The notes under the pieces: generated by a model | Told to the model about the DNA's origin: nothing | Database searches by the model: none | The model's input: only the letters and a program-made list of their open reading frames with translations | Made by a program: the position numbers and the translations under genes | Shown: positions 12,318-25,697 of the stretch, one piece after another | How positions within the stretch are numbered: position 1 is the first letter of the stretch | Layout: every line of letters begins with the position of its first letter | DNA from: Longivirga aurantiaca | GTDB taxonomy: Bacteria > Actinomycetota > Actinomycetes > S36-B12 > CAIYMF01 | DNA: 32,000 nt | Direction: 5' to 3' | Assembly (NCBI RefSeq): GCF_042660085.1 | Contig: NZ_JBHSTI010000008.1 | Coordinates: forward strand, 1,659,876-1,691,875

Positions 12318-12320
<3 letters not shown>
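12271..12320 (-). terminator. Perfect 23-bp stem / 4-nt loop hairpin immediately 3' of tRNA-Pro. The last 3 bp of the stem overlap the tRNA 3' end.
   Basis: CGACAGACGATGAAGGCCGGCCG-CAAG-CGGCCGGCCTTCATCGTCTGTCG. Confidence 0.7.
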
Positions 12321-12391
<71 letters not shown>

Positions 12392-14721: not shown

Positions 14722-15434
14722 GCGCCCATCCGCTCGCGGGCGAGGCCCACCACGGCGGCGACGACCTCGGCGAGCCCGAGGTGGGTCGCATCCACCACGA
14801 CCGCGTCCTCCGCCTGGGTGGTCGGCGATGCCGCGCGGCTGGCGTCGGCCGCGTCGCGGCGCGCCAGGTCGGCGGCGATCGATTCGGACGACGTCACGTG
14901 CGCGCGGCCCGCAGCTGCGTCCTCGGCCGCGCGTCGGGCGGCTCGGACGCCGGGGTCTGCGACGAGCCACACCTTGAGGTCGGCGTCGGGGAGCACGACC
15001 GCGCCGATGTCACGGCCCTCGACCACGATGCCCTGCTCGACGGCGAGCGCGCTGCGCACGGCACCGCGCTGGAGGTCCACCAGCAGCGCACGTACCTCGG
15101 GGACCGCTGCCACCGCCGACACTGCCGAGGTGACCGACTGCTCACGGATGGCCCGGGAGACGTCGACGCCGTCGACCCGGATCCAGGACTCGTCCGGGTC
15201 GGTCGACCACTCGAGCGAGGCGGAGCAGGCGGCCGAGGCGACCGCAGCGGGGTCCGAGGCCGGCACGCCGTCGCGCAGCACGGCCCAGGTGATCGCGCGG
15301 TACATGGCGCCGGTGTCGAGATAGCGCAGGCCGAGCTCGCGGGCGACCCCGCGCGACACGCTGGACTTGCCCGAGCCCGACGGGCCGTCGACCGCGATGA
15401 CCGCCGTCGCGGTGCTGGGCGTGCGGGGGTCCAT
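14718..15434 (-). CDS. cmk: Cytidylate kinase
   Basis: IAVDGPSGSGKSSVSRGVARELGLRYLDTGAMYRA. The ATG at 15434 gives 238 aa. Confidence 0.93.
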   Translation of the reverse strand: MDPRTPSTATAVIAVDGPSGSGKSSVSRGVARELGLRYLDTGAMYRAITWAVLRDGVPASDPAAVASAACSASLEWSTDPDESWIRVDGVDVSRAIREQSVTSAVSAVAAVPEVRALLVDLQRGAVRSALAVEQGIVVEGRDIGAVVLPDADLKVWLVADPGVRAARRAAEDAAAGRAHVTSSESIAADLARRDAADASRAASPTTQAEDAVVVDATHLGLAEVVAAVVGLARERMGA

Positions 15435-15576
15435 GCAGGGTCCTTCGTCCGGGGTGCTCGGCGGGCCGACGAGCAGCAGGTCGAGCCTACGGCCCGCAGA
15501 GGCGCACCCCGGCCACGTCGGCGGCTCGGTCGACGTGACCTGCGCCCTCTCCCGTCGATGCGGCGATGTGTCGCCG

Positions 15577-15584
15577 TGTCGACA
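15577..15584. promoter_or_regulatory. TGTCGACA palindrome, copy a (tyrA-cmk spacer)
   Basis: Exact 8-bp palindrome. Context is GTGTCGACAATG. Confidence 0.4.
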
Positions 15585-15624
15585 ATGCAGCCGATCGGCG
15601 CGCTCGTCCACGACCCGTGCCGCA

Positions 15625-15632
15625 TGTCGACA
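15625..15632. promoter_or_regulatory. TGTCGACA palindrome, copy b (tyrA-cmk spacer)
   Basis: Exact copy. Context is GCATGTCGACAAAAC, a 15-mer identical to copy d on the opposite strand. Confidence 0.4.
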
Positions 15633-15670
15633 AAACCACCTGCCGATACGGCGTCAGGAGAGGCAACAGT

Positions 15671-15682
15671 GCAGGTCAGAGG
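15671..15682. repeat. GCAGGTCAGAGG 12-mer, 13 nt beyond the tyrA stop
   Basis: Exact match to 20405-20416 and 21959-21970. Confidence 0.6.
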
Positions 15683-15695
15683 CGTGCGACCGCGC

Positions 15696-16811
15696 TCAGA
15701 AGCGGACGTCCCAGCCCGTCGTCCGCAGACCGTCGGCAAGGCTCGACGCCGACTCGGGCGACACCTCGAGCTCCACCAGCCCTGTCGGACGGCCCTGGGC
15801 GTGCTCGATCCGCACGTCCTCGAGGTTGACCCCCGTGGCGCCCGCGTCGGCGAACAGCCGCCCGAGCTCGCCCGGGCGGTCGGCGACCGAGACCGCGACG
15901 ACGGCCCAGGTGACGGGTGCAGCGCCGTGCTTGCCCGGCACGCGCCGGTGACCGACGACGCCTGCCTCGAGGGACGTCCGCACCGCTGCCGCGCCCGCCT
16001 CCCCCGCCCGCAGCCCGTCCCGCACCGCCGCCAGGCGGTCGATGAGCGAGTCGAGCGCACCAGCCACCGGCTCGGCGTTGCTGGCGAGGATCTCGGCCCA
16101 CAGGCCGGGGTCGGAGGCTGCGAGGCGGGTGACATCGCGCAGGCCCTGGCCGGAGAGCCGTACGCCGGTGTCGCCGAGGTCCGCCAGCCCTGCGGCCACC
16201 GTGGAGGCGACCACCTGCGGCGTGTGCGAGGTGAGCGCCACCGCACGGTCGTGCTCATCGGGCGAGGTGATCACCGGCACCGCTCCCAGGGACTCCACCA
16301 GGGCGGCGACCTGCCGCGTGCGTGTGAGGTCCGTGGCCGCGGACGGCGTCAGCGCCCACACCCGGTCGGCGAACAGATCGGCCCGCGCTGCCGCCGGACC
16401 GGACACCTCGCGCCCAGCCATGGGATGCCCAGGGACGAATCGAGCGATCGCGGACGCATCCAGCCCTGAAGTCTCGATCTCCCGCTGAAGTCTAGCCTTG
16501 GTGCTCACCACGTCACTCACTGTCGCGTTGACAGTGCTTCGAAGTACCTCGATTACGACTGACGGCGCCGCGGCGGGCGGGACGGCCACGATCACCAGGG
16601 CCGGCTCCCCCGCAGCGGGCCGTGGCAGCCCCGCGCCCCGCTCCACGGCGACGCTCAGCGCCTCCGGGTCGCGGTCCTGGAGCCAGACCTCCGTCCCCCG
16701 CTCGCGCAGAGCGAGCGCCACCGACGCGCCGATGAGCCCCGTCCCGATCACCAGCACCGGGCCAGCCGTAGAGGTGGGCGCGTCGCCCGGCACCGGGACC
16801 ACACCGGTCAC
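15696..16811 (-). CDS. tyrA: Prephenate dehydrogenase with a C-terminal ACT-like domain
   Basis: Rossmann motif VLVIGTGLIGASVA, then DVVSTK and PGHPMAGRE. The GTG at 16811 forms a GTGA overlap with the chorismate mutase stop. Confidence 0.9.
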   Translation of the reverse strand: MTGVVPVPGDAPTSTAGPVLVIGTGLIGASVALALRERGTEVWLQDRDPEALSVAVERGAGLPRPAAGEPALVIVAVPPAAAPSVVIEVLRSTVNATVSDVVSTKARLQREIETSGLDASAIARFVPGHPMAGREVSGPAAARADLFADRVWALTPSAATDLTRTRQVAALVESLGAVPVITSPDEHDRAVALTSHTPQVVASTVAAGLADLGDTGVRLSGQGLRDVTRLAASDPGLWAEILASNAEPVAGALDSLIDRLAAVRDGLRAGEAGAAAVRTSLEAGVVGHRRVPGKHGAAPVTWAVVAVSVADRPGELGRLFADAGATGVNLEDVRIEHAQGRPTGLVELEVSPESASSLADGLRTTGWDVRF

Positions 16812-17170
16812 TGGGCGAGGTCCTGGCGCAGCGCCTCGGCGCCGCGCAGGTAGACGTGGACCACCTCGGACCGCGGCACGTCCATCTCGGCGTGCGCCAT
16901 CACGCGCACGACCCGGGACAGCGCGCCGGGTACGGCGATCTCCTGGGCGCAGATGAGCGGCACGTCCCCGAGCCCGATCCCCCGCGCTGCGGCCGCCGGG
17001 AACATGCAGACCAGGTCCGGCGTGGAGGTGAAGATCACCGAGATCAGATCGGCCCGGTCCAGCCCGTTGCGCTCGAGCAGGGCACTCACCAGCTCGACGA
17101 CCGCGTCGGTCATCTCGGCCGGGTCGTCGGCAGACAGGCGGGTGGCGCCACGCAGCGCTCGGACGGACAC
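16808..17170 (-). CDS. aroH: Chorismate mutase, AroH class
   Basis: 120 aa with VRALRGATRL...FTSTPDL...FPAAAAR...RVVRVMAHAE...HVYLRGAEALRQDL, which closely parallels B. subtilis AroH (from memory). The GTG at 17170 is preceded by GAAAGGGG. Confidence 0.88.
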   Translation of the reverse strand: MSVRALRGATRLSADDPAEMTDAVVELVSALLERNGLDRADLISVIFTSTPDLVCMFPAAAARGIGLGDVPLICAQEIAVPGALSRVVRVMAHAEMDVPRSEVVHVYLRGAEALRQDLAQ

Positions 17171-17262
17171 GGTGGACCCCTTTCGGTCGACGGCTCACCT
17201 TAGCGATCCAGCGATCACTCTCCTTGATGACTCACCGATGAGCCGCCCCATCGCTTCAGCCA

Positions 17263-17541
17263 TCAGTCGTTGGAGCGACCTGCCATTTTAGCCTTTTGTC
17301 GATCTAACGTCTTCTCAGCAATGCGACTTGGCGATCCATCACCAGGAGCCGGATCCAGCACCGCGTGCGCGGAAGCGACTGCTCCCCCGTCGGCATCGCC
17401 CTGGTCGTCGGCCGGTGCCGGCCCGTCCTGGCCCACGGGCGCGCTGCTGAGCTCGACCTGGCCCCCTGACCTGGGCAGATAGTGGCAACGCCGGCAGGGA
17501 GCTCGGACCCATGCTGAGGGCTGATAGCGTTTTGTCGACAT
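17263..17541 (-). CDS. Very tentative small ORF (92 aa; MSTKRYQPSAWVRAPCRRCHY...) in the rluB-aroH spacer
   Basis: Moderate GC3 (about 70% in its centre) and the same orientation as its neighbours. The ATG lies inside TGTCGACA copy d, and a TTGACG-N19-TACGGT promoter-like element lies upstream. I recognise no homology and the sequence is low-complexity. Confidence 0.2.
   Translation of the reverse strand: MSTKRYQPSAWVRAPCRRCHYLPRSGGQVELSSAPVGQDGPAPADDQGDADGGAVASAHAVLDPAPGDGSPSRIAEKTLDRQKAKMAGRSND
17533..17540. promoter_or_regulatory. TGTCGACA palindrome, copy d (rluB-aroH spacer)
   Basis: Exact copy. Context is GTTTTGTCGACATGC. Degenerate relatives lie at 17297-17304 (TGTCGATC), 17577-17584 (TGTCGTCA) and 17612-17619 (TGTCGACG). 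Confidence 0.4.
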
Positions 17542-17661
17542 GCTAGGGAATGCGACCGTAGGGGTCACAGTCGACTTGTCGTCAACGGAGAAGATGCCGG
17601 GCAGACCGATTTGTCGACGAAGCGTTCTAGCGGTTGCTCGCTCGGTCGATGCAGCGTCGAT

Positions 17662-17676
17662 CGGCCCTCGGGGCCG
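17662..17676 (-). terminator. Small GC hairpin abutting the rluB stop codon
   Basis: CGGCCC-TCG-GGGCCG, a 6-bp stem. It is weak on its own. Confidence 0.3.
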
Positions 17677-18423
17677 CTAGAGCCCGACGGCGGCGTAGAG
17701 CTCGCCGACCTCCTGGATCGACAGCGTGCGCACCTTGCCCGAGCGCAGATCGCCGAGACCGATCGGACCGACCTTGACCCGGACCAGCCCCTCGACGGGG
17801 TGCCCGACCTCCTTGAGGAGGCGTCGGACGATGTGCTTGCGACCCTCGTGCAGCACCAGCTCGACGAGGCTCCGGCCGGGGGCGGAGGTGACGATCCGGA
17901 ACCGGTCCACGCGCACGATGCCGTCCTCGAGCTCGACTCCGTCGCGGAGCCGACGGCCGAGGTCGCGCGGGATGGTCCCCCGCACCTGGGCGAGGTAGGT
18001 CTTGGTGACGCCGTGCGAGGGGTGGGCGAGCCGCTGGGCGAGGTCGCCGTCGTTGGTCAGGAGGAGCAGACCCTCGGTGTCGGCGTCGAGACGGCCGACG
18101 TGGAAGAGCCGCTCCTTGCGCCCCTTCAGGTAGTCCCCTACGCAGGGCCGGCCGCGGTCGTCGCTCATGGTGGAGTGCACGCCACGCGGCTTGTTGAGCG
18201 CGAGCACGACGTGCCCGGGGGCCGTGGGGATGCGCATCCCGTCGACCTTGATGACCGCGCTCGAGGGGTCCACGCGCAGGCCCTGCTCGAGCACGATCCG
18301 GCCGTCGACCTCGACCCGGCCTTCGTCGATCATCTCCTCGCACGCGCGCCGGCTACCGATCCCGGCCGCGGCCAGGACCTTCTGCAGACGGACACCCGTC
18401 TCGGACGACGCTTGGGGGCTCAC
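17677..18423 (-). CDS. rluB: 23S rRNA pseudouridine synthase, RsuA/RluB family, with an S4 domain
   Basis: S4 domain (RLQKVLAAAGIGSRRACEEMIDEGRVEVDG) and the catalytic motif HVGRLDADTEGLLLLTNDGDL. Confidence 0.9.
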   Translation of the reverse strand: MSPQASSETGVRLQKVLAAAGIGSRRACEEMIDEGRVEVDGRIVLEQGLRVDPSSAVIKVDGMRIPTAPGHVVLALNKPRGVHSTMSDDRGRPCVGDYLKGRKERLFHVGRLDADTEGLLLLTNDGDLAQRLAHPSHGVTKTYLAQVRGTIPRDLGRRLRDGVELEDGIVRVDRFRIVTSAPGRSLVELVLHEGRKHIVRRLLKEVGHPVEGLVRVKVGPIGLGDLRSGKVRTLSIQEVGELYAAVGL

Positions 18424-18439
18424 AGTCTCAACCTCAACT

Positions 18440-19189
18440 TCACATTTCGTCGGCTAGTGCATCAAGTAGTTCAATGTCCGGCAGGTAGTCAGCCACCGGG
18501 GGCAACTCTGCCAGGTCGGTGATCCCCAGCCGCTCGAGGAACAGGTCCGTGGTCCGGTACAGGATCGCCTGGCTCGTCGGGTCGTGCCCCGCCTCGCCGA
18601 TGAGCCCCCGGCTCGTGAGCGTGCGGATGACGCCGTCGACGTTCACCCCGCGCACGGCGGAGATGCGCGCCCGGCTGACGGGCTGCCGGTACGCGACCAC
18701 GGCGAGGGTCTCCAGGGCGGCCTGGGTGAGCTTGGCCTGCTGCCCGTCACGCACGAACCGCTCCACGACCTCGGAGCAGTCCGCGCGCGTGTAGAACCGC
18801 CAGCCGCCGGCGACCTCGCGCAGGTCGAACCCCCGGCCCGCCTCGGCATAGCCGGCGGACAGGCTCCGGACGGCCTCCTCGACCTCGGCGGTGGTGCGCC
18901 GGACGATCGTGGCGAGCGTCGGGATGTCCAGGGGCTCGTCGGTCACGAGGAGCACGGCCTCGAGGGCGGCGTCGAGAGTGGGGGCTCCCAGGGTGTCGCT
19001 CGGCTGGTCGTCCTCGTCGGTGCCGTCCGGCTCCGACGCCTCGTCGGCGTCCGCCGCGGGGCGCTCGGAGGCGCGTGCGGGCGCCTCTGCGGCCTCCGGG
19101 GGCGTCGGGGCGTCCTCGGACGTCGTCGCGGCCTCCAGCGCCTCCACGGGGGGCTGCTGGGCCTGCTCGGTCACGTCGGGGTCGGTCAC
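18440..19189 (-). CDS. scpB: Segregation and condensation protein B with a disordered acidic/Pro-rich N-terminus
   Basis: LEAVLLVTDEPL...GFDLREVAGGWRFYT...LTQAALETLAVVAYRQPVSRARISAVRGVNVDGVIRTL. The GTG at 19189 forms a GTGA overlap with the scpA stop. Confidence 0.9.
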   Translation of the reverse strand: MTDPDVTEQAQQPPVEALEAATTSEDAPTPPEAAEAPARASERPAADADEASEPDGTDEDDQPSDTLGAPTLDAALEAVLLVTDEPLDIPTLATIVRRTTAEVEEAVRSLSAGYAEAGRGFDLREVAGGWRFYTRADCSEVVERFVRDGQQAKLTQAALETLAVVAYRQPVSRARISAVRGVNVDGVIRTLTSRGLIGEAGHDPTSQAILYRTTDLFLERLGITDLAELPPVADYLPDIELLDALADEM

Positions 19190-20241
19190 GCGTCGGCCTC
19201 CGGGCTCCTGTGCTGGTCGATCGGGTCCGCGTCCTCGTCGTCGCCGAGCACGACGCCCGAGATGTCTGCGATGTCCTGGTCTGTGACCTCGGCCGCGGCC
19301 TCGGGCTCGGGCTCCGCGACCGGGCTGCCCTCGTACTCCTCGGCCGCCACGGCCACCTCGCCGTCGGCGGGCCCCGTCCACCGGATGTGGAGCTCCCCGA
19401 GGGGGTCGACCTGGTCGAACGCGACCGATCCCTCGCGATAGAGCTCGAGCAGGGCCAGGAAGCGCGCCACCACGAGCAGCGTGGTGTCGCAGTCGGCGGT
19501 GAGGTGCCGGAAGGTCTGCGAGGGGTTCCGGCGCAGCCGGTCCACGAGCACCGCGGCCTGCTCACGCACGCTCACGCGCGGGGCATGGATGTGCGATATG
19601 CCAACGGACGCAACCGGTTTCGGTGCAAGCGCCCGAGCCGCAAGCGCAGCGAACTCGGCCGGGCCGAGACCGATCAGCACCTCGGGTAGGAGGTCGGAGT
19701 ACTCAGGGTCGAGGCCGGCCGTGCGGGGGCGGCGGCGTGCTCCCGTGCGGAGCATCTCCCCCAGCAGCTCGGAGACGTCGCGGAAAGCCCTGTACTGCAG
19801 CAGCCGCGCGAAGAGCAGGTCACGGGCCTCGAGCAGGGCGAGGTCCTCCTCGTCCTCGACCTCGCCGGACGGGAGCAGCCGAGCGGCCTTGAGGTCGAGC
19901 AGAGTCGCGGCCACGACGAGGAACTCGGTGGCCTCGTCGAGGTCCCACTCGGGCCCACGGGCCCGGATGTGCGCGAGGAAGTCGTCGATCACGGTGTGCA
20001 GCGCGAGCACCGTGACGTCGAGCTTGTGCTTGGCGATCAACGAGAGCAGGAGGTCGAACGGGCCCTCGAACTCGTCGAGCCGCACCGAGAAGCTGTCGCT
20101 GGGCTCCGCCGGCGGGGCGTCCGGGGGGCCGCTGACCTCGCCGTCGGGGCCCTGGTCCTGCGTCATCACGACGTCGTCGCCGGGCACCGCACCCGTGGCG
20201 GGGGCGGCCCCGGTCGGGTCGGAGGCGAGGACGTCGATCAC
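19186..20241 (-). CDS. scpA: Segregation and condensation protein A (kleisin)
   Basis: FSVRLDEFEGPFDLLLSLIAKHKLDVTVLAL...LLELYREG. The start is uncertain: GTG at 20241, or the internal ATG 25 codons downstream. Confidence 0.88.
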   Translation of the reverse strand: MIDVLASDPTGAAPATGAVPGDDVVMTQDQGPDGEVSGPPDAPPAEPSDSFSVRLDEFEGPFDLLLSLIAKHKLDVTVLALHTVIDDFLAHIRARGPEWDLDEATEFLVVAATLLDLKAARLLPSGEVEDEEDLALLEARDLLFARLLQYRAFRDVSELLGEMLRTGARRRPRTAGLDPEYSDLLPEVLIGLGPAEFAALAARALAPKPVASVGISHIHAPRVSVREQAAVLVDRLRRNPSQTFRHLTADCDTTLLVVARFLALLELYREGSVAFDQVDPLGELHIRWTGPADGEVAVAAEEYEGSPVAEPEPEAAAEVTDQDIADISGVVLGDDEDADPIDQHRSPEADA

Positions 20242-20369
20242 GCGCGGAAACCTACCTTCCGCAGCGCAGCGCGGCTGCTCGCCCGACGGTGACCGTCCGG
20301 CGCGTCGCTCCGGGACGACGGCCGCCCGGCCGGTCAGCGGGTTCCCGCACTCCGGCCGATGAATCGCTG

Positions 20370-20377
20370 TGTCGACA
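20370..20377. promoter_or_regulatory. TGTCGACA palindrome, copy g (RHH-scpA spacer)
   Basis: Exact copy. It lies 4 nt from the base of the 20381-20422 hairpin. Confidence 0.4.
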
Positions 20378-20380
20378 GAT

Positions 20381-20422
20381 CGATGACCTCTGACCTGCGA
20401 CGACGCAGGTCAGAGGTCATCG
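20381..20422 (-). terminator. Perfect 19-bp stem / 4-nt loop hairpin 10 nt after the RHH-gene stop. Both arms contain the GCAGGTCAGAGG motif.
   Basis: CGATGACCTCTGACCTGCG-ACGA-CGCAGGTCAGAGGTCATCG. Confidence 0.7.
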
Positions 20423-20431
20423 GGGTCGCGT

Positions 20432-20893
20432 TCAGAGACCGCGCAGGCGACGGACGAGGATGCTCTCGTCGCCCTTGGCCTCCAGGTCGGCGATCACCAC
20501 GGCCACCGCCTCCCGCACGATCCGGCCGCGGTCCACGGCCATGCCGTGCTGGGCTCGCAGGGCGAGCTTGGCCTGCTCGAGGGCGACGAGCTCCTCCGGC
20601 GAGACGTAGACGGTGATCTTCTCCTCGTGCCGCTCGCGACCCGTCGGGCGCAGATCGCCCGGACGCTGGCGGCGCTTGGGCGTCGTGCGCACCCGGGTCG
20701 GGGTGCCGGCGACCGTCGCGCCGGCAGGTGCGACCTCAGCGGCCTGCGACCGGGTCTCGGCGGGCGTCGGCGCCAGGGCCACGACGGCAGGTGCCGGGTC
20801 GGCCGAGGAGTCGGTGTCCGGCTCGGGCGCCGGTGCGTCCGACGTACGGCGGAACAGCTCGTCCGCCCCGGGCAGCGTCGCGCGTCGGCTCAT
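20432..20893 (-). CDS. Small protein with a disordered basic/Pro-Ala-rich N-terminus and a C-terminal ribbon-helix-helix-like DNA-binding domain. Candidate ParA partner.
   Basis: The C-terminal sequence EKITVYVSPEELVALEQAKLALRAQHGMAVDRGRIVREAVAVVIADLE fits the strand-helix-turn-helix pattern of CopG/Arc/ParG proteins. ATGA overlap with the parA-like stop. Confidence 0.6.
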   Translation of the reverse strand: MSRRATLPGADELFRRTSDAPAPEPDTDSSADPAPAVVALAPTPAETRSQAAEVAPAGATVAGTPTRVRTTPKRRQRPGDLRPTGRERHEEKITVYVSPEELVALEQAKLALRAQHGMAVDRGRIVREAVAVVIADLEAKGDESILVRRLRGL

Positions 20894-21810
20894 GGTGCCA
20901 GCACCTCCCTCGCGAGCTGGCGGTACGCCGCGGCGCCCGTCGAGCTCGATGCGTACGTCGTGATGGGCTCGCCCGCGACGGTCGTCTCGGGGAATCGGAC
21001 CGTGCGGGCGATGACCGTGTGGAACACCTTGTCGTCGAACGCCTCGACAACCCGGGCCAGGACCTCGCGGCTGTGCAAGGTGCGGCTGTCGTACATCGTG
21101 GCTAGAATTCCCTCAACCTCAAGTCGAGGGTTAATCCGTTCCTGGACGCGGTAGATGGTGTCCATGAGCAGGGCTACACCGCGCAGGGCGAAGAACTCGC
21201 ACTCCAGCGGGATGATCACGCCGTCGGCCGCGGCCAGCGCGTTGACCGTCAGCAGGCCCAGGGAGGGCTGGCAGTCGATCAGGACGATGTCGTACTCCCC
21301 CAGCACCGGCGCGAGCACGCGGGCGAGGGTCTGCTCCCGGGCGACCTCCGAGACCAGCTGCACCTCGGCGGCGGACAGGTCGATGTTGCCCGGCAGCAGG
21401 TCCAGGCCGGCGACGGAGGTCTTGAGCAGGACGTCCTCGATGGCCACGTCGCGCTGCATGAGCAGGTTGTAGACGGTGAGGTCGAGCTCGTGCGGGTTGA
21501 CCCCGAGCCCGACCGAGAGCGCCCCCTGCGGGTCGAAGTCGACGACCAGGACCCGACGGCCCGCCTCGGCGAGCGCGGCCCCGAGGTTGATCGTGGTGGT
21601 GGTCTTGCCCACGCCGCCCTTCTGGTTGCACAGGGCGATGACGCGTGCGGGTCCGTGCGACTCCAGCACCGGCGGCTCGGGGAACACCTGCTTGGGCCGC
21701 AGCGTCGCGTCGAGCTCGACGGGCTCGGTGCCGGCGGCCGGGAGACCTGGCGTCGGGCTGTCGTCCGCGGGAGCCGGGTCCGGCTCGGCCGCGTTTGTCG
21801 ACATAGTCAC
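20890..21810 (-). CDS. ParA/Soj-family (deviant Walker A) ATPase, the orphan chromosomal type found next to scpAB/xerD in actinobacteria
   Basis: VIALCNQKGGVGKTTTTINLGAALAE...VLVVDFDPQG...IVLIDCQPSLG. The start is either the GTG at 21810 or the ATG at 21804. Confidence 0.9.
   Translation of the reverse strand: MTMSTNAAEPDPAPADDSPTPGLPAAGTEPVELDATLRPKQVFPEPPVLESHGPARVIALCNQKGGVGKTTTTINLGAALAEAGRRVLVVDFDPQGALSVGLGVNPHELDLTVYNLLMQRDVAIEDVLLKTSVAGLDLLPGNIDLSAAEVQLVSEVAREQTLARVLAPVLGEYDIVLIDCQPSLGLLTVNALAAADGVIIPLECEFFALRGVALLMDTIYRVQERINPRLEVEGILATMYDSRTLHSREVLARVVEAFDDKVFHTVIARTVRFPETTVAGEPITTYASSSTGAAAYRQLAREVLAP
21796..21803. promoter_or_regulatory. TGTCGACA palindrome, copy h (overlaps the parA-like start codon region)
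   Basis: Exact copy. On the minus strand it reads ATGTCGACAAAC, coding M-S-T-N. Confidence 0.4.
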
Positions 21811-21958
21811 AAGCAGACTCGTCTCTGTCGCGATAGAAATCCTGATCGCCTTGGCGATGGAGCGTCACCCTAGGCGCGTCCGCGCGCCGGAGGCAAGACG
21901 CGGGCGTGACCGGTCAGCCGTCCGGGGGCATCCGGGCGCGGGCGAGCGCCGCGAAACC

Positions 21959-21970
21959 GCAGGTCAGAGG
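21959..21970. repeat. GCAGGTCAGAGG 12-mer, 4 nt beyond the xerD stop
   Basis: Exact match to 15671-15682 and 20405-20416. The match to the tyrA copy extends to GCAGGTCAGAGGC. Confidence 0.6.
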
Positions 21971-21974
21971 CCTG

Positions 21975-22961
21975 TCAGGACCGAGCGCGGGGATGCGCGA
22001 GCGCGTAGACCTCGCGCAGCCTGTCGACCGTCACCAGGGTGTAGATCTGGGTCGTCGTCACCGAGGCGTGCCCCAGGAGCTCCTGCACCACGCGCACGTC
22101 GGCCCCGCCGTCGAGCAGGTGCGTGGCGAAGCTGTGCCGCAGCGTGTGCGGCGAGACGTCCGCGGTGACCCCCGCGCGCTCGACCGCCGCGGCGAGCACC
22201 GTCCAGGCGCTCTGCCGCGTGAGCCGGCCCCCGCGGGCGTTGAGGAACAGCGCCGGGCTGCCCGTGCCGGCAGCCACGAGCACCGGACGGCCGCGCACGA
22301 GATAGGCCTCCACGGCTGCGACCGCCATCCGCCCGACGGGCACGAGGCGCTCCTTGGAGCCCTTCCCGCGCAGCAGCACAGAGGCGGAGTCGAGGTCGAG
22401 GTCGTCGACGTCGAGGCCGATCGCCTCGGAGATGCGCGCACCGGTGCCGTACAGCACCTCGAGCAGCGCCCGGTCGCGCAGCTCGCGGGCCGCGCCCTCT
22501 CCCCCGGCGGCGGCGAGGATGGCCTCGATCTCGGCGACCGAGATGGCCTTGGGCAGCTTGCGGGTCTGGCTGGGCGGCCGCACCTCCTTGCCCGGGTCCG
22601 AGGTGGTGAGGCCCTCCCGCGCGGCGAACCGGTGGAAGCCGCGCACGGCAACCACCGTGCGGCCCGCGCTCGAGGCGGCCAGGGGCCTGTGCTCGGCGTC
22701 GCCGGCTCGGAGCGCGAGGAGGAAGTCGCTGATGTCGGTCTCGGTCACCTGGTCGGGCTCGGTGATCCCGCGGGACGACGTCCAGGCGAGGTAGCGGGCG
22801 AGGTCGCGGCGGTAGGCGACCAGCGAGTTGGGGGCGAGACCGCGCTCCACCGCCAGGTGGTCGAGGTAGAGGGTGACGGCGCGGGCGAGGGCGGACGGCC
22901 GGGCCGGGGCCGCCTCGGTGACGTCGCCGACGGACTCACCGCCGTCCTGCTGGTCGCTCAC
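21975..22961 (-). CDS. xerD: Site-specific tyrosine recombinase XerD
   Basis: The N-terminal SAM-like domain ([23 protein letters not shown]) and catalytic residues (ARISE...[12 protein letters not shown]...[14 protein letters not shown]) are present. The GTG at 22961 is preferred because codons upstream of it are poor. Confidence 0.9.
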
Positions 22962-23118
22962 ATCACGACCGTACCTGACATAACGGACGACGGGCCGCGA
23001 CCACCCGTCCCCAGTGCGCGGCGGTGCGCGTGTCGTCCACATCGCGAACGGGCCCGAGCGTGGCCCGGTCGCAGCCTCCGGTCACGGTCCTCGCCACACC
23101 CCGACCCGAGGAGACCCC

Positions 23119-23901
23119 GTGAGCGACGCCCCTACACCGGACTCACCCGCCTGCCGTGCACCCCGACGACTGCGGCGCCCGCTGCTGATCGCCTCGGCCC
23201 TCGCCGCCGCCTTCCTCGTCACCATCGACGCGGCGTCGTTCGCCGCGACCGGCTCGGGCCTCGTCCTCGGCAGGGTCAACACCGCGTCTGCACCCACGAC
23301 CATCAGCAACGACGGCGCCGGCCCCGCCCTGCGGCTGACGACGTCGAGCAGCACCTCGGCGCCGTTCGCCACCAACGCCACCGGCAAGGTCGTCAACCTC
23401 CACGCGGACAAGCTCGACGGCATGGACGCCGCCGCCCTCGTCGCCGCCGCTCGGACGGCGGTGGACGCCGCGAAGCTCCAGGGCCGCACCGCGGCCGAGA
23501 TCGCCGCTTTGGCGCCGGTGCCGCGCTTCACCTTCGTGCGCACCAGCATCCGCCAGACCTCGAACCCGGGATGGCTGCCCGGAGCGCTGTCGTCGGACGG
23601 TGCTGCTCCGGGCACGTACCGCCTCACCGGAACGCTCATGGTGCCGTGCTCCCCCAGCAGCGCCTCGGGCTACCTGCTGGCACTTGCGGTCGTACGAAGC
23701 GCGATCGACGTGGACCCGGTCATCCTGCAGCGTCCGGTTGCCGCGACGCTCTGCGGCAAGCCCATCCCGATCGCCGAGACCGTCACGATGGACTCGGGCG
23801 CGCGGCTGCTGCTGCGGGTGCACGACATCGACGCCGGCGACCTCGTGAGCCTGCCGCTCTCCTTCGATCTGCGCGCCGTGCCCATCGGAGCAGCGCTCTG
23901 A
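23119..23901 (+). CDS. Secreted hypothetical protein (260 aa) with an Arg-rich signal peptide
   Basis: GAGGAG Shine-Dalgarno 5 nt before the GTG at 23119. The signal is RRLRRPLLIASALAAAFLVTIDAASFAA. An internal segment, VVNLHADKLDGMDAAAL, recalls a motif seen in tail-fibre-like secreted proteins (recollection only). Confidence 0.65.
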   Translation: MSDAPTPDSPACRAPRRLRRPLLIASALAAAFLVTIDAASFAATGSGLVLGRVNTASAPTTISNDGAGPALRLTTSSSTSAPFATNATGKVVNLHADKLDGMDAAALVAAARTAVDAAKLQGRTAAEIAALAPVPRFTFVRTSIRQTSNPGWLPGALSSDGAAPGTYRLTGTLMVPCSPSSASGYLLALAVVRSAIDVDPVILQRPVAATLCGKPIPIAETVTMDSGARLLLRVHDIDAGDLVSLPLSFDLRAVPIGAAL

Positions 23902-23964: not shown

Positions 23965-25083
23965 TCAGGCGAGGACCGACTCCAGCGTGGTGGCGGGGAG
24001 GTCGGGGAACGCCTCGGCCACGGCGCCGTAGGTGATCTGGCCGGCGTGGGTGTTGAGGCCGAGCGCGAGCGACGTGTCGTCCGCCAGCGCCTTCTTCCAG
24101 CCCTTGTTCGCGAGCGCCACGGCGTACGGCAGCGTCACGTTGGTGAGCGCGTACGTCGAGGTGTTCGGCACCGCACCCGGCATGTTCGCGACGCAGTAGA
24201 AGACCGAGTTGTGCACGGCGTACGTCGGGTCCGCGTGCGTGGTGGGGCGCGAGTCCTCGAAGCAGCCGCCCTGGTCGATGGCGATGTCGACGAGGACCGA
24301 TCCCGGCTTCATCCGCGACACGAGCTCGTTGCTGATGAGCTTGGGGGCCTTGGCGCCGGGGACGAGCACCGCGCCGATGACCAGGTCGGCGTCGAGGACG
24401 GCGCGCTCGATCTCGAACGAGTTCGACGCGATCGTCTGCACGTGACCCTGGTAGATCGCGTCCATCTGGCGGAGGCGGGCGATGTTGAGGTCGAGCAGGA
24501 GCACCTCGGCCTGCATGCCGAGCGCGATCGCCGCGGCGTTCTGGCCGGAGACGCCACCACCGAGGACGACGACCTTCGCGGCGTAGGTGCCGGACACGCC
24601 GCCCATGAGCACGCCACGGCCGCCGTTGGCGCGCATGAGCGCGTGGGCACCGACCTGCGGGGCGAGCCGGCCGGCCACCTCGGACATCGGCGCGAGCAGC
24701 GGCAGCGAGCGGTCGGGCAGCTCGACGGTCTCGTAGGCGATCGCGGTGACGCCGTTGTTGATGAGCGCCTCGGTGCAGGCGCGGCCCGCGGCGAGGTGCA
24801 GGTAGGTGAAGAGGGTCTGGCCCGAGCGCATGCGGTGGTACTCCTCCGCGACGGGCTCCTTCACCTTGAGGATGAGGTCGCCGGTCGCCCAGACGTCGTC
24901 CGCCGTGGGGAGGATGGTCGCGCCCGCGGCGACGTACTCGTCGTCGGTGATCGAGGAGCCGACACCTGCGTCGTGCTCGATGTAGACCTCGTGGCCGTTC
25001 TTCACGAGCTCGAACACGCCGGCCGGGGTGATGGCCACGCGGTACTCGTGGTTCTTGACCTCGCGGGGGATTCCGACCTTCAC
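23965..25083 (-). CDS. ald: L-alanine dehydrogenase
   Basis: [23 protein letters not shown]..., the NAD-binding motif [14 protein letters not shown], and the C-terminal [16 protein letters not shown]. The GTG at 25083 is preceded by GGAGG. Confidence 0.95.
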
Positions 25084-25181
25084 GACATGCCTCCGATGCG
25101 CTGATTGCTCCTGCGGAGGATGATGAAGCCAGAGCCGCAACTCGGGTAGTTCGGGTGCAGTTCGTTCGGTACATTACGTCC

Positions 25182-25697
25182 ATGCCCGAACCACGTTCGA
25201 AGAAGCCGGTCAAGCGCCCCACACCCTCGAATCCGGTGCAGAAGCCTCTCGACGCCGTCGACCGGGAGATCCTCTCCGAGCTCGTCCGCGAGGGGCGCCT
25301 GCCCAACAACGTGCTCGCCGAGCGCCTCGGCATCGCGCCCTCGACCTGCCTCATGCGCACCCAGAACCTCGTGAAGAGGGGCGTGATCCGCGGTTTCCGG
25401 GCCGACGTCGACCACGCGAAGGTCGGCGCGGGTCTGCAGGCGATGGTGTCGGTTCGGGTGCGACCCGGCGCGCGGGGGGCGCTGCTCGAGTTCGGCAAGC
25501 GCCTCGCGCACGAGCCCGGCGTGCTCAACGTCTACTTCGTCGCCGGGGCGTTCGACTTCCTCGTGCACGTGGCAGCGTCGGACTCCGAGGGCCTGCGCGA
25601 CTTCGTCACCCAGAACCTGTCGGCGCGGCCGGAGACGGAGTCGACCCAGACCAGCCTGGTGTTCGAGCACTTCCCCGGCGCGGGGATCCCGCTGTAG
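25182..25697 (+). CDS. Lrp/AsnC-family transcriptional regulator, divergent from ald (AldR-like arrangement)
   Basis: LDAVDREILSELVREGRLPNNVLAERLGIAPSTCLMRTQNLVKRGVIRGF (HTH) plus a C-terminal RAM/AsnC domain. The ATG at 25182 is preferred over the GTG at 25155. Confidence 0.88.
   Translation: MPEPRSKKPVKRPTPSNPVQKPLDAVDREILSELVREGRLPNNVLAERLGIAPSTCLMRTQNLVKRGVIRGFRADVDHAKVGAGLQAMVSVRVRPGARGALLEFGKRLAHEPGVLNVYFVAGAFDFLVHVAASDSEGLRDFVTQNLSARPETESTQTSLVFEHFPGAGIPL

Follow-up and report, generated by a model that had tools for sequence, protein, structure and literature searches.

In type Ib partition systems, the ribbon-helix-helix (RHH) adaptors ParG and omega have short repeated boxes at their own promoter or leader, which leads to autoregulation; omega boxes are found in several further promoter regions, which serve as centromeres too. 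RHH ribbons are portable specificity elements of eight residues: ParG reads tetramer boxes with 4-bp AT-rich spacers between them, and the MetJ ribbon KKITVSIP reads tandem 8-bp palindromes, AGACGTCT (PMC3413123). The ATPase PldP/ParA2 is present in all actinobacteria (PMC4255298). It has been described as an orphan ParA in Corynebacterium (bioRxiv 2025.07.02.662783) and, in mycobacteria, as a MinD-like interaction partner of ParB and ScpA (PMC10482377). PldP/ParA2/Rv1708 affects division-site placement and is treated as an orphan ParA borrowing ParB (PMC4255298, bioRxiv 2025.07.02.662783, PMC10482377). We analyzed a 32,000-nucleotide stretch of actinobacterial DNA from Longivirga aurantiaca (contig NZ_JBHSTI010000008.1; G+C, 72.9%), here called the window, in which the 8-bp palindrome TGTCGACA recurs around a ParA-type ATPase gene, parA2. 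Our best reading, to which we give a probability of about 50%, is that TGTCGACA may be the recognition box of a 153-aa protein encoded directly after parA2.

The minus strand of the window carries, in order, recN, a DUF885 gene, pyrG, ald, xerD, the ParA-type ATPase gene, the 153-codon gene, scpA, scpB, rluB, aroH, tyrA, cmk, plsC, and der. A first-pass annotation had already labeled cmk, tyrA, aroH (chorismate mutase), rluB, scpB, scpA, and the ParA-type ATPase gene, and Pfam agrees with each label. It had also listed five exact copies of TGTCGACA and placed them outside gene bodies. We found the same five copies and no others, all in spacers or at a gene start. With the two genes that matter most, they are as follows (positions are those of the window):

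15577-15584: box 1, exact TGTCGACA, in the spacer from the tyrA stop (15696) to the cmk ATG (15434)
15625-15632: box 2, exact TGTCGACA, in the tyrA-cmk spacer, with the cmk ATG about 190 nucleotides (nt) downstream
17533-17540: box 3, exact TGTCGACA, 136 nt past the rluB stop, in the spacer of about 500 nt from that stop (17677) to the aroH start (17170)
17569-17576, 17577-17584, and 17612-17619: degenerate boxes AGTCGACT, TGTCGTCA, and TGTCGACG, in the rluB-aroH spacer
20370-20377: box 4, exact TGTCGACA, between the small-gene stop (20432) and the scpA GTG (20241), with the scpA start about 125 nt downstream
21796-21803: box 5, exact TGTCGACA, over parA2 codons 3-5 (GTG-ACT-ATG-TCG-ACA; ATG at 21804, in-frame GTG at 21810)
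20432-20893, minus strand: the small gene, encoding the 153-aa protein, a candidate box-binding adaptor
20890-21810, minus strand: parA2, encoding a Soj/ParA-type Walker ATPase with no helix-turn-helix (HTH)

Two of the three near-copies proposed earlier, at 17577 and 17612, are indeed 7/8 matches; the one at 17297 matches at 6/8 positions only. The proposed T-run consensus, TTTTGTCGACA, describes part of the set: TTTT adjoins two sites and TTT one, while one site has a single T and one has none. The T-run beside box 2 may be the U-tract of a tyrA terminator hairpin. The 15-mer GCATGTCGACAAAAC is present on opposite strands at two copies, as first reported. In relatives, the constant part of the box is (T>A>C>G)GTCGACA, often followed by A/T.

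The boxes exceed what chance would produce. Base composition gives 0.19 copies in the window; dinucleotide shuffles gave a mean of 0.46 copies and reached five in 0 of 100 cases. For the non-coding DNA (about 3 kb) plus 8-nt gene edges, the expectation lies between 0.02 (mononucleotide) and 0.056 (first-order Markov), and none of 5000 simulations reached five. Among 8-mer palindromes in the non-coding DNA of the window, TGTCGACA is the commonest. We then considered that the copies might have no function and merely reflect composition, the frequent Val-Asp hexamer GTCGAC, a conserved Met-Ser-Thr N terminus, or local duplication. The hexamer is in fact over-represented in the window, 69 occurrences versus 38 expected, driven by codon usage (Val-Asp); one-mismatch matches to TGTCGACA are at chance level (16 in total versus 16.1 expected), and one exact site falls within the first codons of a gene. 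Against this stand the five exact copies, where at most 0.056 are expected in non-coding DNA, and the bases beside GTCGAC, which are C or G in coding DNA and T or A in the box-bearing spacers. The box flanks are not duplicated repeats. Orthologous sites are retained as their flanks diverge, and a rare ACA codon is kept at the parA2 start, both described below. We regard an origin without function as effectively refuted.

The genomes nearest to the window are uncultured "Nanopelagicales/Actinomycetes" metagenome-assembled genomes (MAGs). Syntenic 20-kb loci were retrieved via the small protein (L083, L087, L090, and L093-L096) or via RluB (L003 and L005), and 80 diverse actinobacterial loci served as a wider sample. 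Conservation at orthologous spacers, checked in 10 related genomes, is clear: the boxes keep their position while the flanks diverge.

parA2 5' end: box in ten of ten genomes, (T/A)GTCGAC(A/T)
rluB-aroH spacer: box in nine of ten genomes, usually about three boxes nnTCGACAAAT within 140 nt of the rluB stop
tyrA-cmk spacer: box in nine of ten genomes, often paired
Small gene-scpA spacer: box in the nearest relatives only

The rluB-aroH boxes of relatives stand about 36-45 nt apart. The box 3 equivalent is exact in L083, L090, L003, L005, L093, and L095 and in the distant L011 and L037. In L005 it reads ATGTCGACATAG, with a stop directly after the box, so box 3 is under no coding constraint and a hidden open reading frame (ORF) is excluded. 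We also rejected small leaderless ORFs starting ATGTCGACAAAA at 15623 (plus strand) and 17542 (minus strand), since relatives have either that stop after the box (L005) or no ATG (L037). The box 2 equivalent is exact in L083 and L090 and reads AGTCGACA in L087; from the box 1 region, TGTCGACACGRCGACACATCG is kept in L083 and L087. The starts of boxes 2 and 1 are 48 nt apart in both the window and L083 and 49 nt apart in L087, and the intervening sequence is unrelated; for the tyrA-cmk pair of L093-L095, the spacing is 38, 41, and 81 nt. Box 4 is exact in L083, L086, L087, L088, and L090 despite diverged flanks and is absent in L093-L096, L003, and L005. Because flanks have diverged freely around them, the 8-mers are under selection. 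In locus L093 (contig_1292), pyrG has 414 aa and der 402 aa, NAD kinase is fused to recN, and several genes are apparently truncated or fused; these anomalies suggest indel errors, and because of that suspicion frame-based arguments from L093 are unreliable.

The sites are also locally clustered, as the first-pass annotation had claimed. Between the xerD stop and the cmk start of the 10 relatives, box-type 7-mers occur at 3.67 per kb of non-coding DNA; in the other non-coding DNA of the same loci (about 30 kb), the density is 0.37 per kb, approximately 10-fold lower. The clustering is therefore reproducible. We consider it highly probable that the boxes are functional conserved elements.

The ATPase gene that carries box 5 was examined in its own right. 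Residues 56-282 of the parA2 product match Pfam AAA_31 (1.6e-61) and CbiA, and an N-terminal extension of about 50 aa is low-complexity, Pro/Ala-rich, and free of any domain match; against NCBIfam, there were partial ParA/RepA matches below cut-offs. The gene lies in the synteny xerD-parA2-(small gene)-scpA-scpB-rluB, by which parA2 is the orthologue of PldP (Cg1610), Rv1708, and SCO1772. Exact ATGTCGACA is found at the start of the parA2 orthologue in about 15 of the 80 actinobacterial loci (Lentzea, Amycolatopsis, Saccharothrix, Actinophytocola, and several MAG lineages), and the variants AGTCGACA or TGTCGAC(T/C) in Acidothermaceae, a Streptomycetaceae genome, and others. The reading frame is ...GTG-nnn-(ATG/AAG)-TCG-ACA.... 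Box 5 is the most widely conserved and the oldest site. Could it be kept for the protein rather than the DNA? ACA makes up 3.3% of Thr codons in the window, yet TCG-ACA has been retained over several actinobacterial orders, and the variants change mostly the outermost box positions; selection therefore acts on nucleotides. A protein-level Met-Ser-Thr constraint is insufficient: ACA is rare, and AAG replaces ATG in L093, L095, and L096 while GTCGACA stays.

Upstream of box 5, the alignment of the 10 relatives shows further conserved blocks. One of them, GAGTCTGCTTGTGAnTA, abuts the box. Three other features, two of them here and one beside box 4, bear on what follows:

21845-21897, minus strand: predicted parA2 promoter, with a -35-like CTTGCC (21897..21892) and a -10 TAGGGT (21872..21867), invariant blocks in the 10 relatives
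21858..21845: 14-nt perfect palindrome ATCGCCAAGGCGAT, just past the predicted parA2 transcription start
20381-20422: perfect hairpin with a 19-bp stem, between the small-gene stop and box 4 (3 nt away); its arms contain CCTCTGACCTGC; terminator-like, without a U-tract

We assigned the parA2 promoter from a TANNNT-type consensus, and it should be read as a prediction. The core of the palindrome, TCGCCnnGGCGA, is invariant in the 10 relatives, and ATCGCCAAGGCGAT, at offsets -56 and -48 from box 5, shares an 8-bp register with it. It could be an RNA hairpin or a second operator.

Another explanation is that the boxes act in RNA. Here UGUCGACA, present in the parA2 leader and start and between cistrons, would direct the processing of a long transcript running from parA2 to der, control its translation, or serve in RNA-RNA pairing. 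Indeed, every box is at a start codon or in a transcribed, co-directional spacer, box 4 comes straight after the strong hairpin, the parA2 leader is highly conserved, and there is no obvious Shine-Dalgarno sequence before the parA2 start. However, an Rfam search passed only the tRNA gene at 12318-12391, with nothing credible in 15400-22000 at E<=1 and no match in the 500-nt rluB-aroH spacer, and the parA2 leader folds no better than its shuffles (z = -1.18). An 8-nt perfect palindrome alone is unable to form a hairpin, and because the stems are invariant, no structure gains support from covariation. Palindromic symmetry and 8-bp-phased degenerate copies fit recognition of double-stranded DNA better. 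An RNA-level role for the boxes thus seems improbable to us.

We then turned to the product of the small gene. Its start overlaps the parA2 stop by 4 nt (20890-20893), and the same overlap is found in L083, L087, L090, and L093-L096. The protein belongs to a very large family, with at least 7977 members at E<=1e-3 (of 8000 scored candidates), that has no informative name; we found no match in a Pfam, NCBIfam, or PDB sequence search and no description in the literature of this (SCO1771-type) protein or of TGTCGACA as a bacterial operator. Homologues were absent from 72,556 plasmids and 50,697 phages, which also disposes of plasmid or phage relatives with compact box arrays. An Arg-rich N-terminal peptide, MSRRATLPGADELFRRT, is invariant in 32 of 32 homologues. 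Next come a variable Pro/Ala-rich linker and a basic stretch, and the C-terminal domain after them is nearly invariant. In AlphaFold2 (AF2) models, the linker is disordered (low confidence), and the C-terminal domain has a short strand, KITV, two 18-residue helices (pLDDT, 81-94), and a short third helix. The presumed ribbon reads EKITVYVS. The predicted secondary structure is the signature of an RHH protein with a ParG/omega-like tail, and from these models we infer an RHH fold.

We next compared box counts between loci with and without this gene. In the 22 loci with a small gene whose ribbon is KITVY[V/C]S, there are 22 exact boxes in non-coding DNA or at gene starts and 6 in gene bodies. 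The 41 loci without the gene, which include Mycobacterium, Nocardia, Tsukamurella, Janibacter, and Phycicoccus, have 3 and 9, respectively. The density of 7-mers in non-coding DNA and gene starts is 0.78 per kb with the gene versus 0.26 per kb without it (Mann-Whitney p = 1.8e-6, phylogeny uncorrected); gene-body densities are equal between the two groups. Over these two sets of loci, the association of box and small gene is positive.

The same distribution bears on DnaA. The sites could be read as variant DnaA boxes (TTGTCGACA, where the consensus in actinobacteria is TTGTCCACA), clustered outside oriC to titrate DnaA or to be regulated by it. A single mismatch separates four of the five sites from TTGTCCACA, and three unrelated contigs have TGTCGACA adjoining canonical-looking DnaA boxes. 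In L149 (94-131), TTATCCACGG and TTATCCACAG precede three TGTCGACA boxes at 15-bp spacing; in L161 (1310-1348), two boxes flank TTGTCCAC upstream of a Ku gene; and in L005 (15263-15285), TGTCGACAGTTGTCCAC lies downstream of der, with a DnaA-box-like TTGTCCAC. On the other hand, position 6 is the mismatched base in every case (C to G), and canonical TTGTCCACA occurs nowhere in the spacers. Box 4 and its orthologues lack the flanking T or A (CTGTCGACAC). The least conserved base of the box is the 5' one, equivalent to DnaA-box position 9 on the other strand; what is kept as a unit is the symmetric core. Although DnaA is universal, the boxes go with the small gene. We find a DnaA cluster very improbable.

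Two promoter-type motifs were tried and rejected. Reading TCGACA as the -35 of a sigma-70-type promoter fails because no TANNNT lies 16-19 nt away on either strand of any box, and a consensus scan was promoter-free. The PafBC/RecA-NDp motif has the form TGTCGGTG-N8-TANNNT; only TGTCG is common to it and the boxes, and there is no -10 at the required distance.

Additional, weaker boxes surround the exact ones. They are arranged in 8-bp steps and were found at these positions:

20354-20385, minus strand: phased array round box 4, CATCGATC / TGTCGACA / CAGCGATT / CATCGGCC, the weaker boxes having a central CG
15553-15584, minus strand: phased array at box 1, TGTCGACA / CGGCGACA / CATCGCCG / CATCGACG

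The register round box 4 is repeated in L083, L087, and L090, for example as TGTCGACA / CGACGACA / GGTCGATC, and CATCGACA / AATCGATG is a further phased example in relatives. Averaged identity to the box has maxima at offsets -16, -8, and +8 (3.05, 3.32, and 2.95 versus a background of about 1.9). Likewise, TCGA-TCGA distances in non-coding DNA peak at 8 and 16 (7 and 5 cases versus about 1.8 expected). The boxes thus sit in an 8-bp-phased context. TGTCGACA and the met-box have the same length and the same nGnCGnCn skeleton, and the ribbons EKITVYVS of the small protein and KKITVSIP of MetJ have the core K-I-T-V in common.

Together, these data suggest how such a system could work. The small protein would correspond, on the chromosome, to the RHH adaptors that serve type Ib partition, made from a gene translationally coupled to parA2. 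Its Arg-rich N-terminal peptide would contact ParA2 and activate the ATPase, with the flexible linker coming next, and a dimeric strand-helix-helix domain would place its two-stranded ribbon, EKITVYVS, in the major groove of a single 8-bp palindrome. Neighboring dimers would occupy the weaker boxes, one every 8 bp. Autoregulation of the parA2 operon would come from the ancestral box at the parA2 start codon, with phased half-boxes back to the transcription start; at this site the protein might act as a roadblock or a filament. In the Nanopelagicales-like lineage, extra boxes would have been gained in the next three gaps, upstream of scpAB-rluB, aroH-tyrA, and cmk-plsC-der. The resulting 6-kb cluster may be a centromere-like ParA2 loading platform, a set of local operators (as omega sites on pSM19035), or both. 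Binding to the box, interaction with ParA2, and the biological output are what we infer from these patterns.

The first-pass annotation had proposed operator or centromere-like sites of a ParA/RHH pair. Clustering, conservation, gene co-occurrence, and an adaptor-like architecture make this the best-supported reading; its RHH part is a structural prediction, and the operator distances are atypical. Several further results weigh against assigning the box to the small protein. The RHH fold, or membership in any DNA-binding family, has no statistical support in Pfam, NCBIfam, or the PDB sequence search. Foldseek against the PDB gave E>1 for both AF2 monomer models, and monomer models are a weak point for obligate intertwined dimers. 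An RHH_3 match was seen in 1 of 20 family members and is weak (E=0.07). There was no detectable similarity of sequence or profile to ParG, CopG, or MetJ; the hhalign alignments to MetJ and CopG had less than 1% probability, with the ribbons aligned in register. The cluster is dispersed and is not a compact tandem centromere, and the phasing signal is modest (z of about 2-2.7) and comes from non-independent orthologous sites. The association between box and gene is confounded by phylogeny, and most of the counted sites are the single orthologous parA2 site. In 17 Streptosporangiales-like loci (Streptosporangiaceae and allies), the small gene is present with the ribbon (Q/H)KITVYLS, and there are essentially no boxes within 10 kb on either side. 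These loci keep identical presumed DNA-facing residues (K, T, and Y), and their parA2 promoter carries GGTGAGTCGGCTTGCC-N-TAGAGT instead. The boxes lie 90-360 nt upstream of the predicted scpA, aroH, and cmk promoters at variable distances; those of scpA and cmk are about 90-140 nt from the predicted -10 (TAGGTT for scpA, TAGGCT for cmk), and this varies among relatives. They are therefore not classical operators, and simple promoter occlusion is unlikely at scpA and cmk. Finally, in a motif-first metagenome scan (TGTCGACA-N20-50-TGTCGACA), the matches listed (80 loci, 29-75% GC) all lie in unrelated surroundings, and none of these loci encodes the small protein or ParA2, a result that is uninformative.

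The 17 box-less loci with a small gene also count in favor of a rival reading, in which the boxes belong to another protein. A dimeric, palindrome-reading regulator encoded elsewhere (GntR-, TetR-, or LacI-type) could co-regulate parA2, scpAB-rluB, aroH-tyrA, cmk-plsC-der, and possibly others. Short perfect palindromes are typical of dimeric regulators, and a box is found in the spacer ahead of each co-directional transcription unit, parA2 through cmk; box pairs also occur in other high-GC contexts, as in L161 upstream of the Ku gene. However, the 41 loci without the small gene keep the same operons, yet their non-coding boxes are near background. The approximately 10-fold drop in density outside the xerD-cmk interval of the 10 relatives and the large, variable box-promoter distances also speak against such a regulator. 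TGTCGACA is not known to match any actinobacterial regulator motif, and we found none that matches in the literature. We hold an unlinked regulator to be doubtful, while giving it more weight than DnaA or an RNA-level signal.

Other conserved sequences accompany the boxes and the genes around them. The block GGAAGGTAGGTTTCCGCGCGTG at the 5' end of scpA (20239-20254) is identical in L083, L087, and L090. Its -10-like TAGGTT ends 7 nt before the GTG, which suggests that the scpA mRNA is leaderless. Upstream of aroH, at the 3' end of the rluB-aroH spacer (17171-17250), there is a strongly conserved block of the form ATCGGTGAGTC-N26-TAAGGT, and GGTGAGTC-N26-TAGAGT lies upstream of parA2 in the box-less Streptosporangiales-like loci (L016-L030). 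The aroH-type block may be a common promoter or activator motif. A second repeated motif, CCTCTGACCTGC(G), occurs on the gene-sense strand at 15671-15682, 20387-20398, 20405-20416, and 21959-21970, four times versus 0.26 expected. It is found directly past the stops of tyrA, the small gene, and xerD. The TGACCTG after the xerD stop is invariant in the 10 relatives, and the motif looks like a lineage-wide terminator or an element of the REP (repetitive extragenic palindromic) type.

Farther out, an AsnC/Lrp-type regulator gene (25155-25697, plus strand) adjoins the alanine dehydrogenase gene (23965-25140, minus strand) like an AldR-ald pair, and the pairing is kept in relatives. Between xerD and ald, the opposite strand carries an ORF (23014-23901, plus strand; 260-295 aa) for which Pfam gave no match; its counterpart in L084, L085, L087, and L090 is a 260-aa gene with no domain match. 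The tRNA gene at 12318-12391 (minus strand) is downstream of der. At the equivalent position, 18697-20453, L087 continues with an HTH_17 gene, an integrase gene, and a TrwC relaxase gene, suggesting that an integrative element was inserted there. GC skew over the window gave neither an origin nor a terminus signal.

We raise, tentatively, a larger possibility: most Actinobacteria outside Corynebacteriales might have an unrecognised three-part chromosomal system made up of ParA2/PldP, a small ribbon-type adaptor, and TGTCGACA boxes. The adaptor would tether ParA2 around xerD-scpAB and autoregulate the operon, and some lineages would use an expanded cluster as a second locus, centromere-like or for positioning and not based on ParB, through which the handling of chromosome arms or of the terminus is linked to the choice of division site. 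If this is true, the supposedly orphan PldP/ParA2 has a dedicated DNA-binding adaptor with a defined 8-bp box. The ATPase then gains a chromosomal cargo or anchor, the conserved scpAB linkage is explained, and a rare ParG/omega-style (type Ib-like) module has been fixed on chromosomes and not on plasmids.

How does this locus compare with described systems? ParB-parS also has clustered palindromic chromosomal sites over several kilobases, tied to a ParA ATPase and to SMC-ScpAB biology. Unlike ParB, the candidate partner here has 153 aa and is a non-HTH protein without a CTPase domain, and the sites are 8 bp long; the 16-bp parS palindrome TGTTNCACGTGAAACA had no match in the window at up to 3 mismatches. 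MetJ and the met-box are close in another way. Both boxes are perfect 8-bp palindromes that have CG at the center and G/C at positions 2 and 7 (AGACGTCT versus TGTCGACA), both occur in tandem at 8-bp steps, and both ribbons have the K-I-T-V core. However, the proteins have no overall homology, the flanking bases of the box differ (T/A swapped), and MetJ has no ParA partner or N-terminal tail and requires S-adenosylmethionine as a co-repressor. We take the likeness to MetJ as a mechanistic analogy only. With PldP/ParA2/Rv1708, the locus has in common the xerD-parA2-scpA-scpB-rluB context and the Soj-like ATPase core. The difference is that the studied Corynebacterium and Mycobacterium have no small downstream gene, whereas the window and many other orders have it, together with a conserved box.

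The last comparison is with type Ib modules, ParF-ParG-parH of TP228 and delta-omega-parS of pSM19035. The differences are that the system described here is chromosomal only; that single 8-bp palindromes with degenerate phased neighbors are spread over 6 kb, not packed into compact arrays of 7-12 repeats; and that the ParA is Soj-like, with a counterpart in other actinobacteria reported to interact with ParB and ScpA (PMC10482377). Because the fold evidence is inconclusive and the box arrangement atypical, membership in the ParG/omega type is unproven. There are also likenesses. Both kinds of locus have a small, HTH-less Walker ParA gene followed by a small adaptor gene, and the adaptor has a flexible N-terminal tail and then a strand-helix-helix DNA-binding domain, here both of them predicted. 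The box period is about 7-8 bp in both (PMC3413123). In the window, five exact and at least three degenerate boxes lie within 6.3 kb, one of them over the start codon of the operon. By analogy, the ParA2-adaptor-box system would work most like a ParG/omega-type module.

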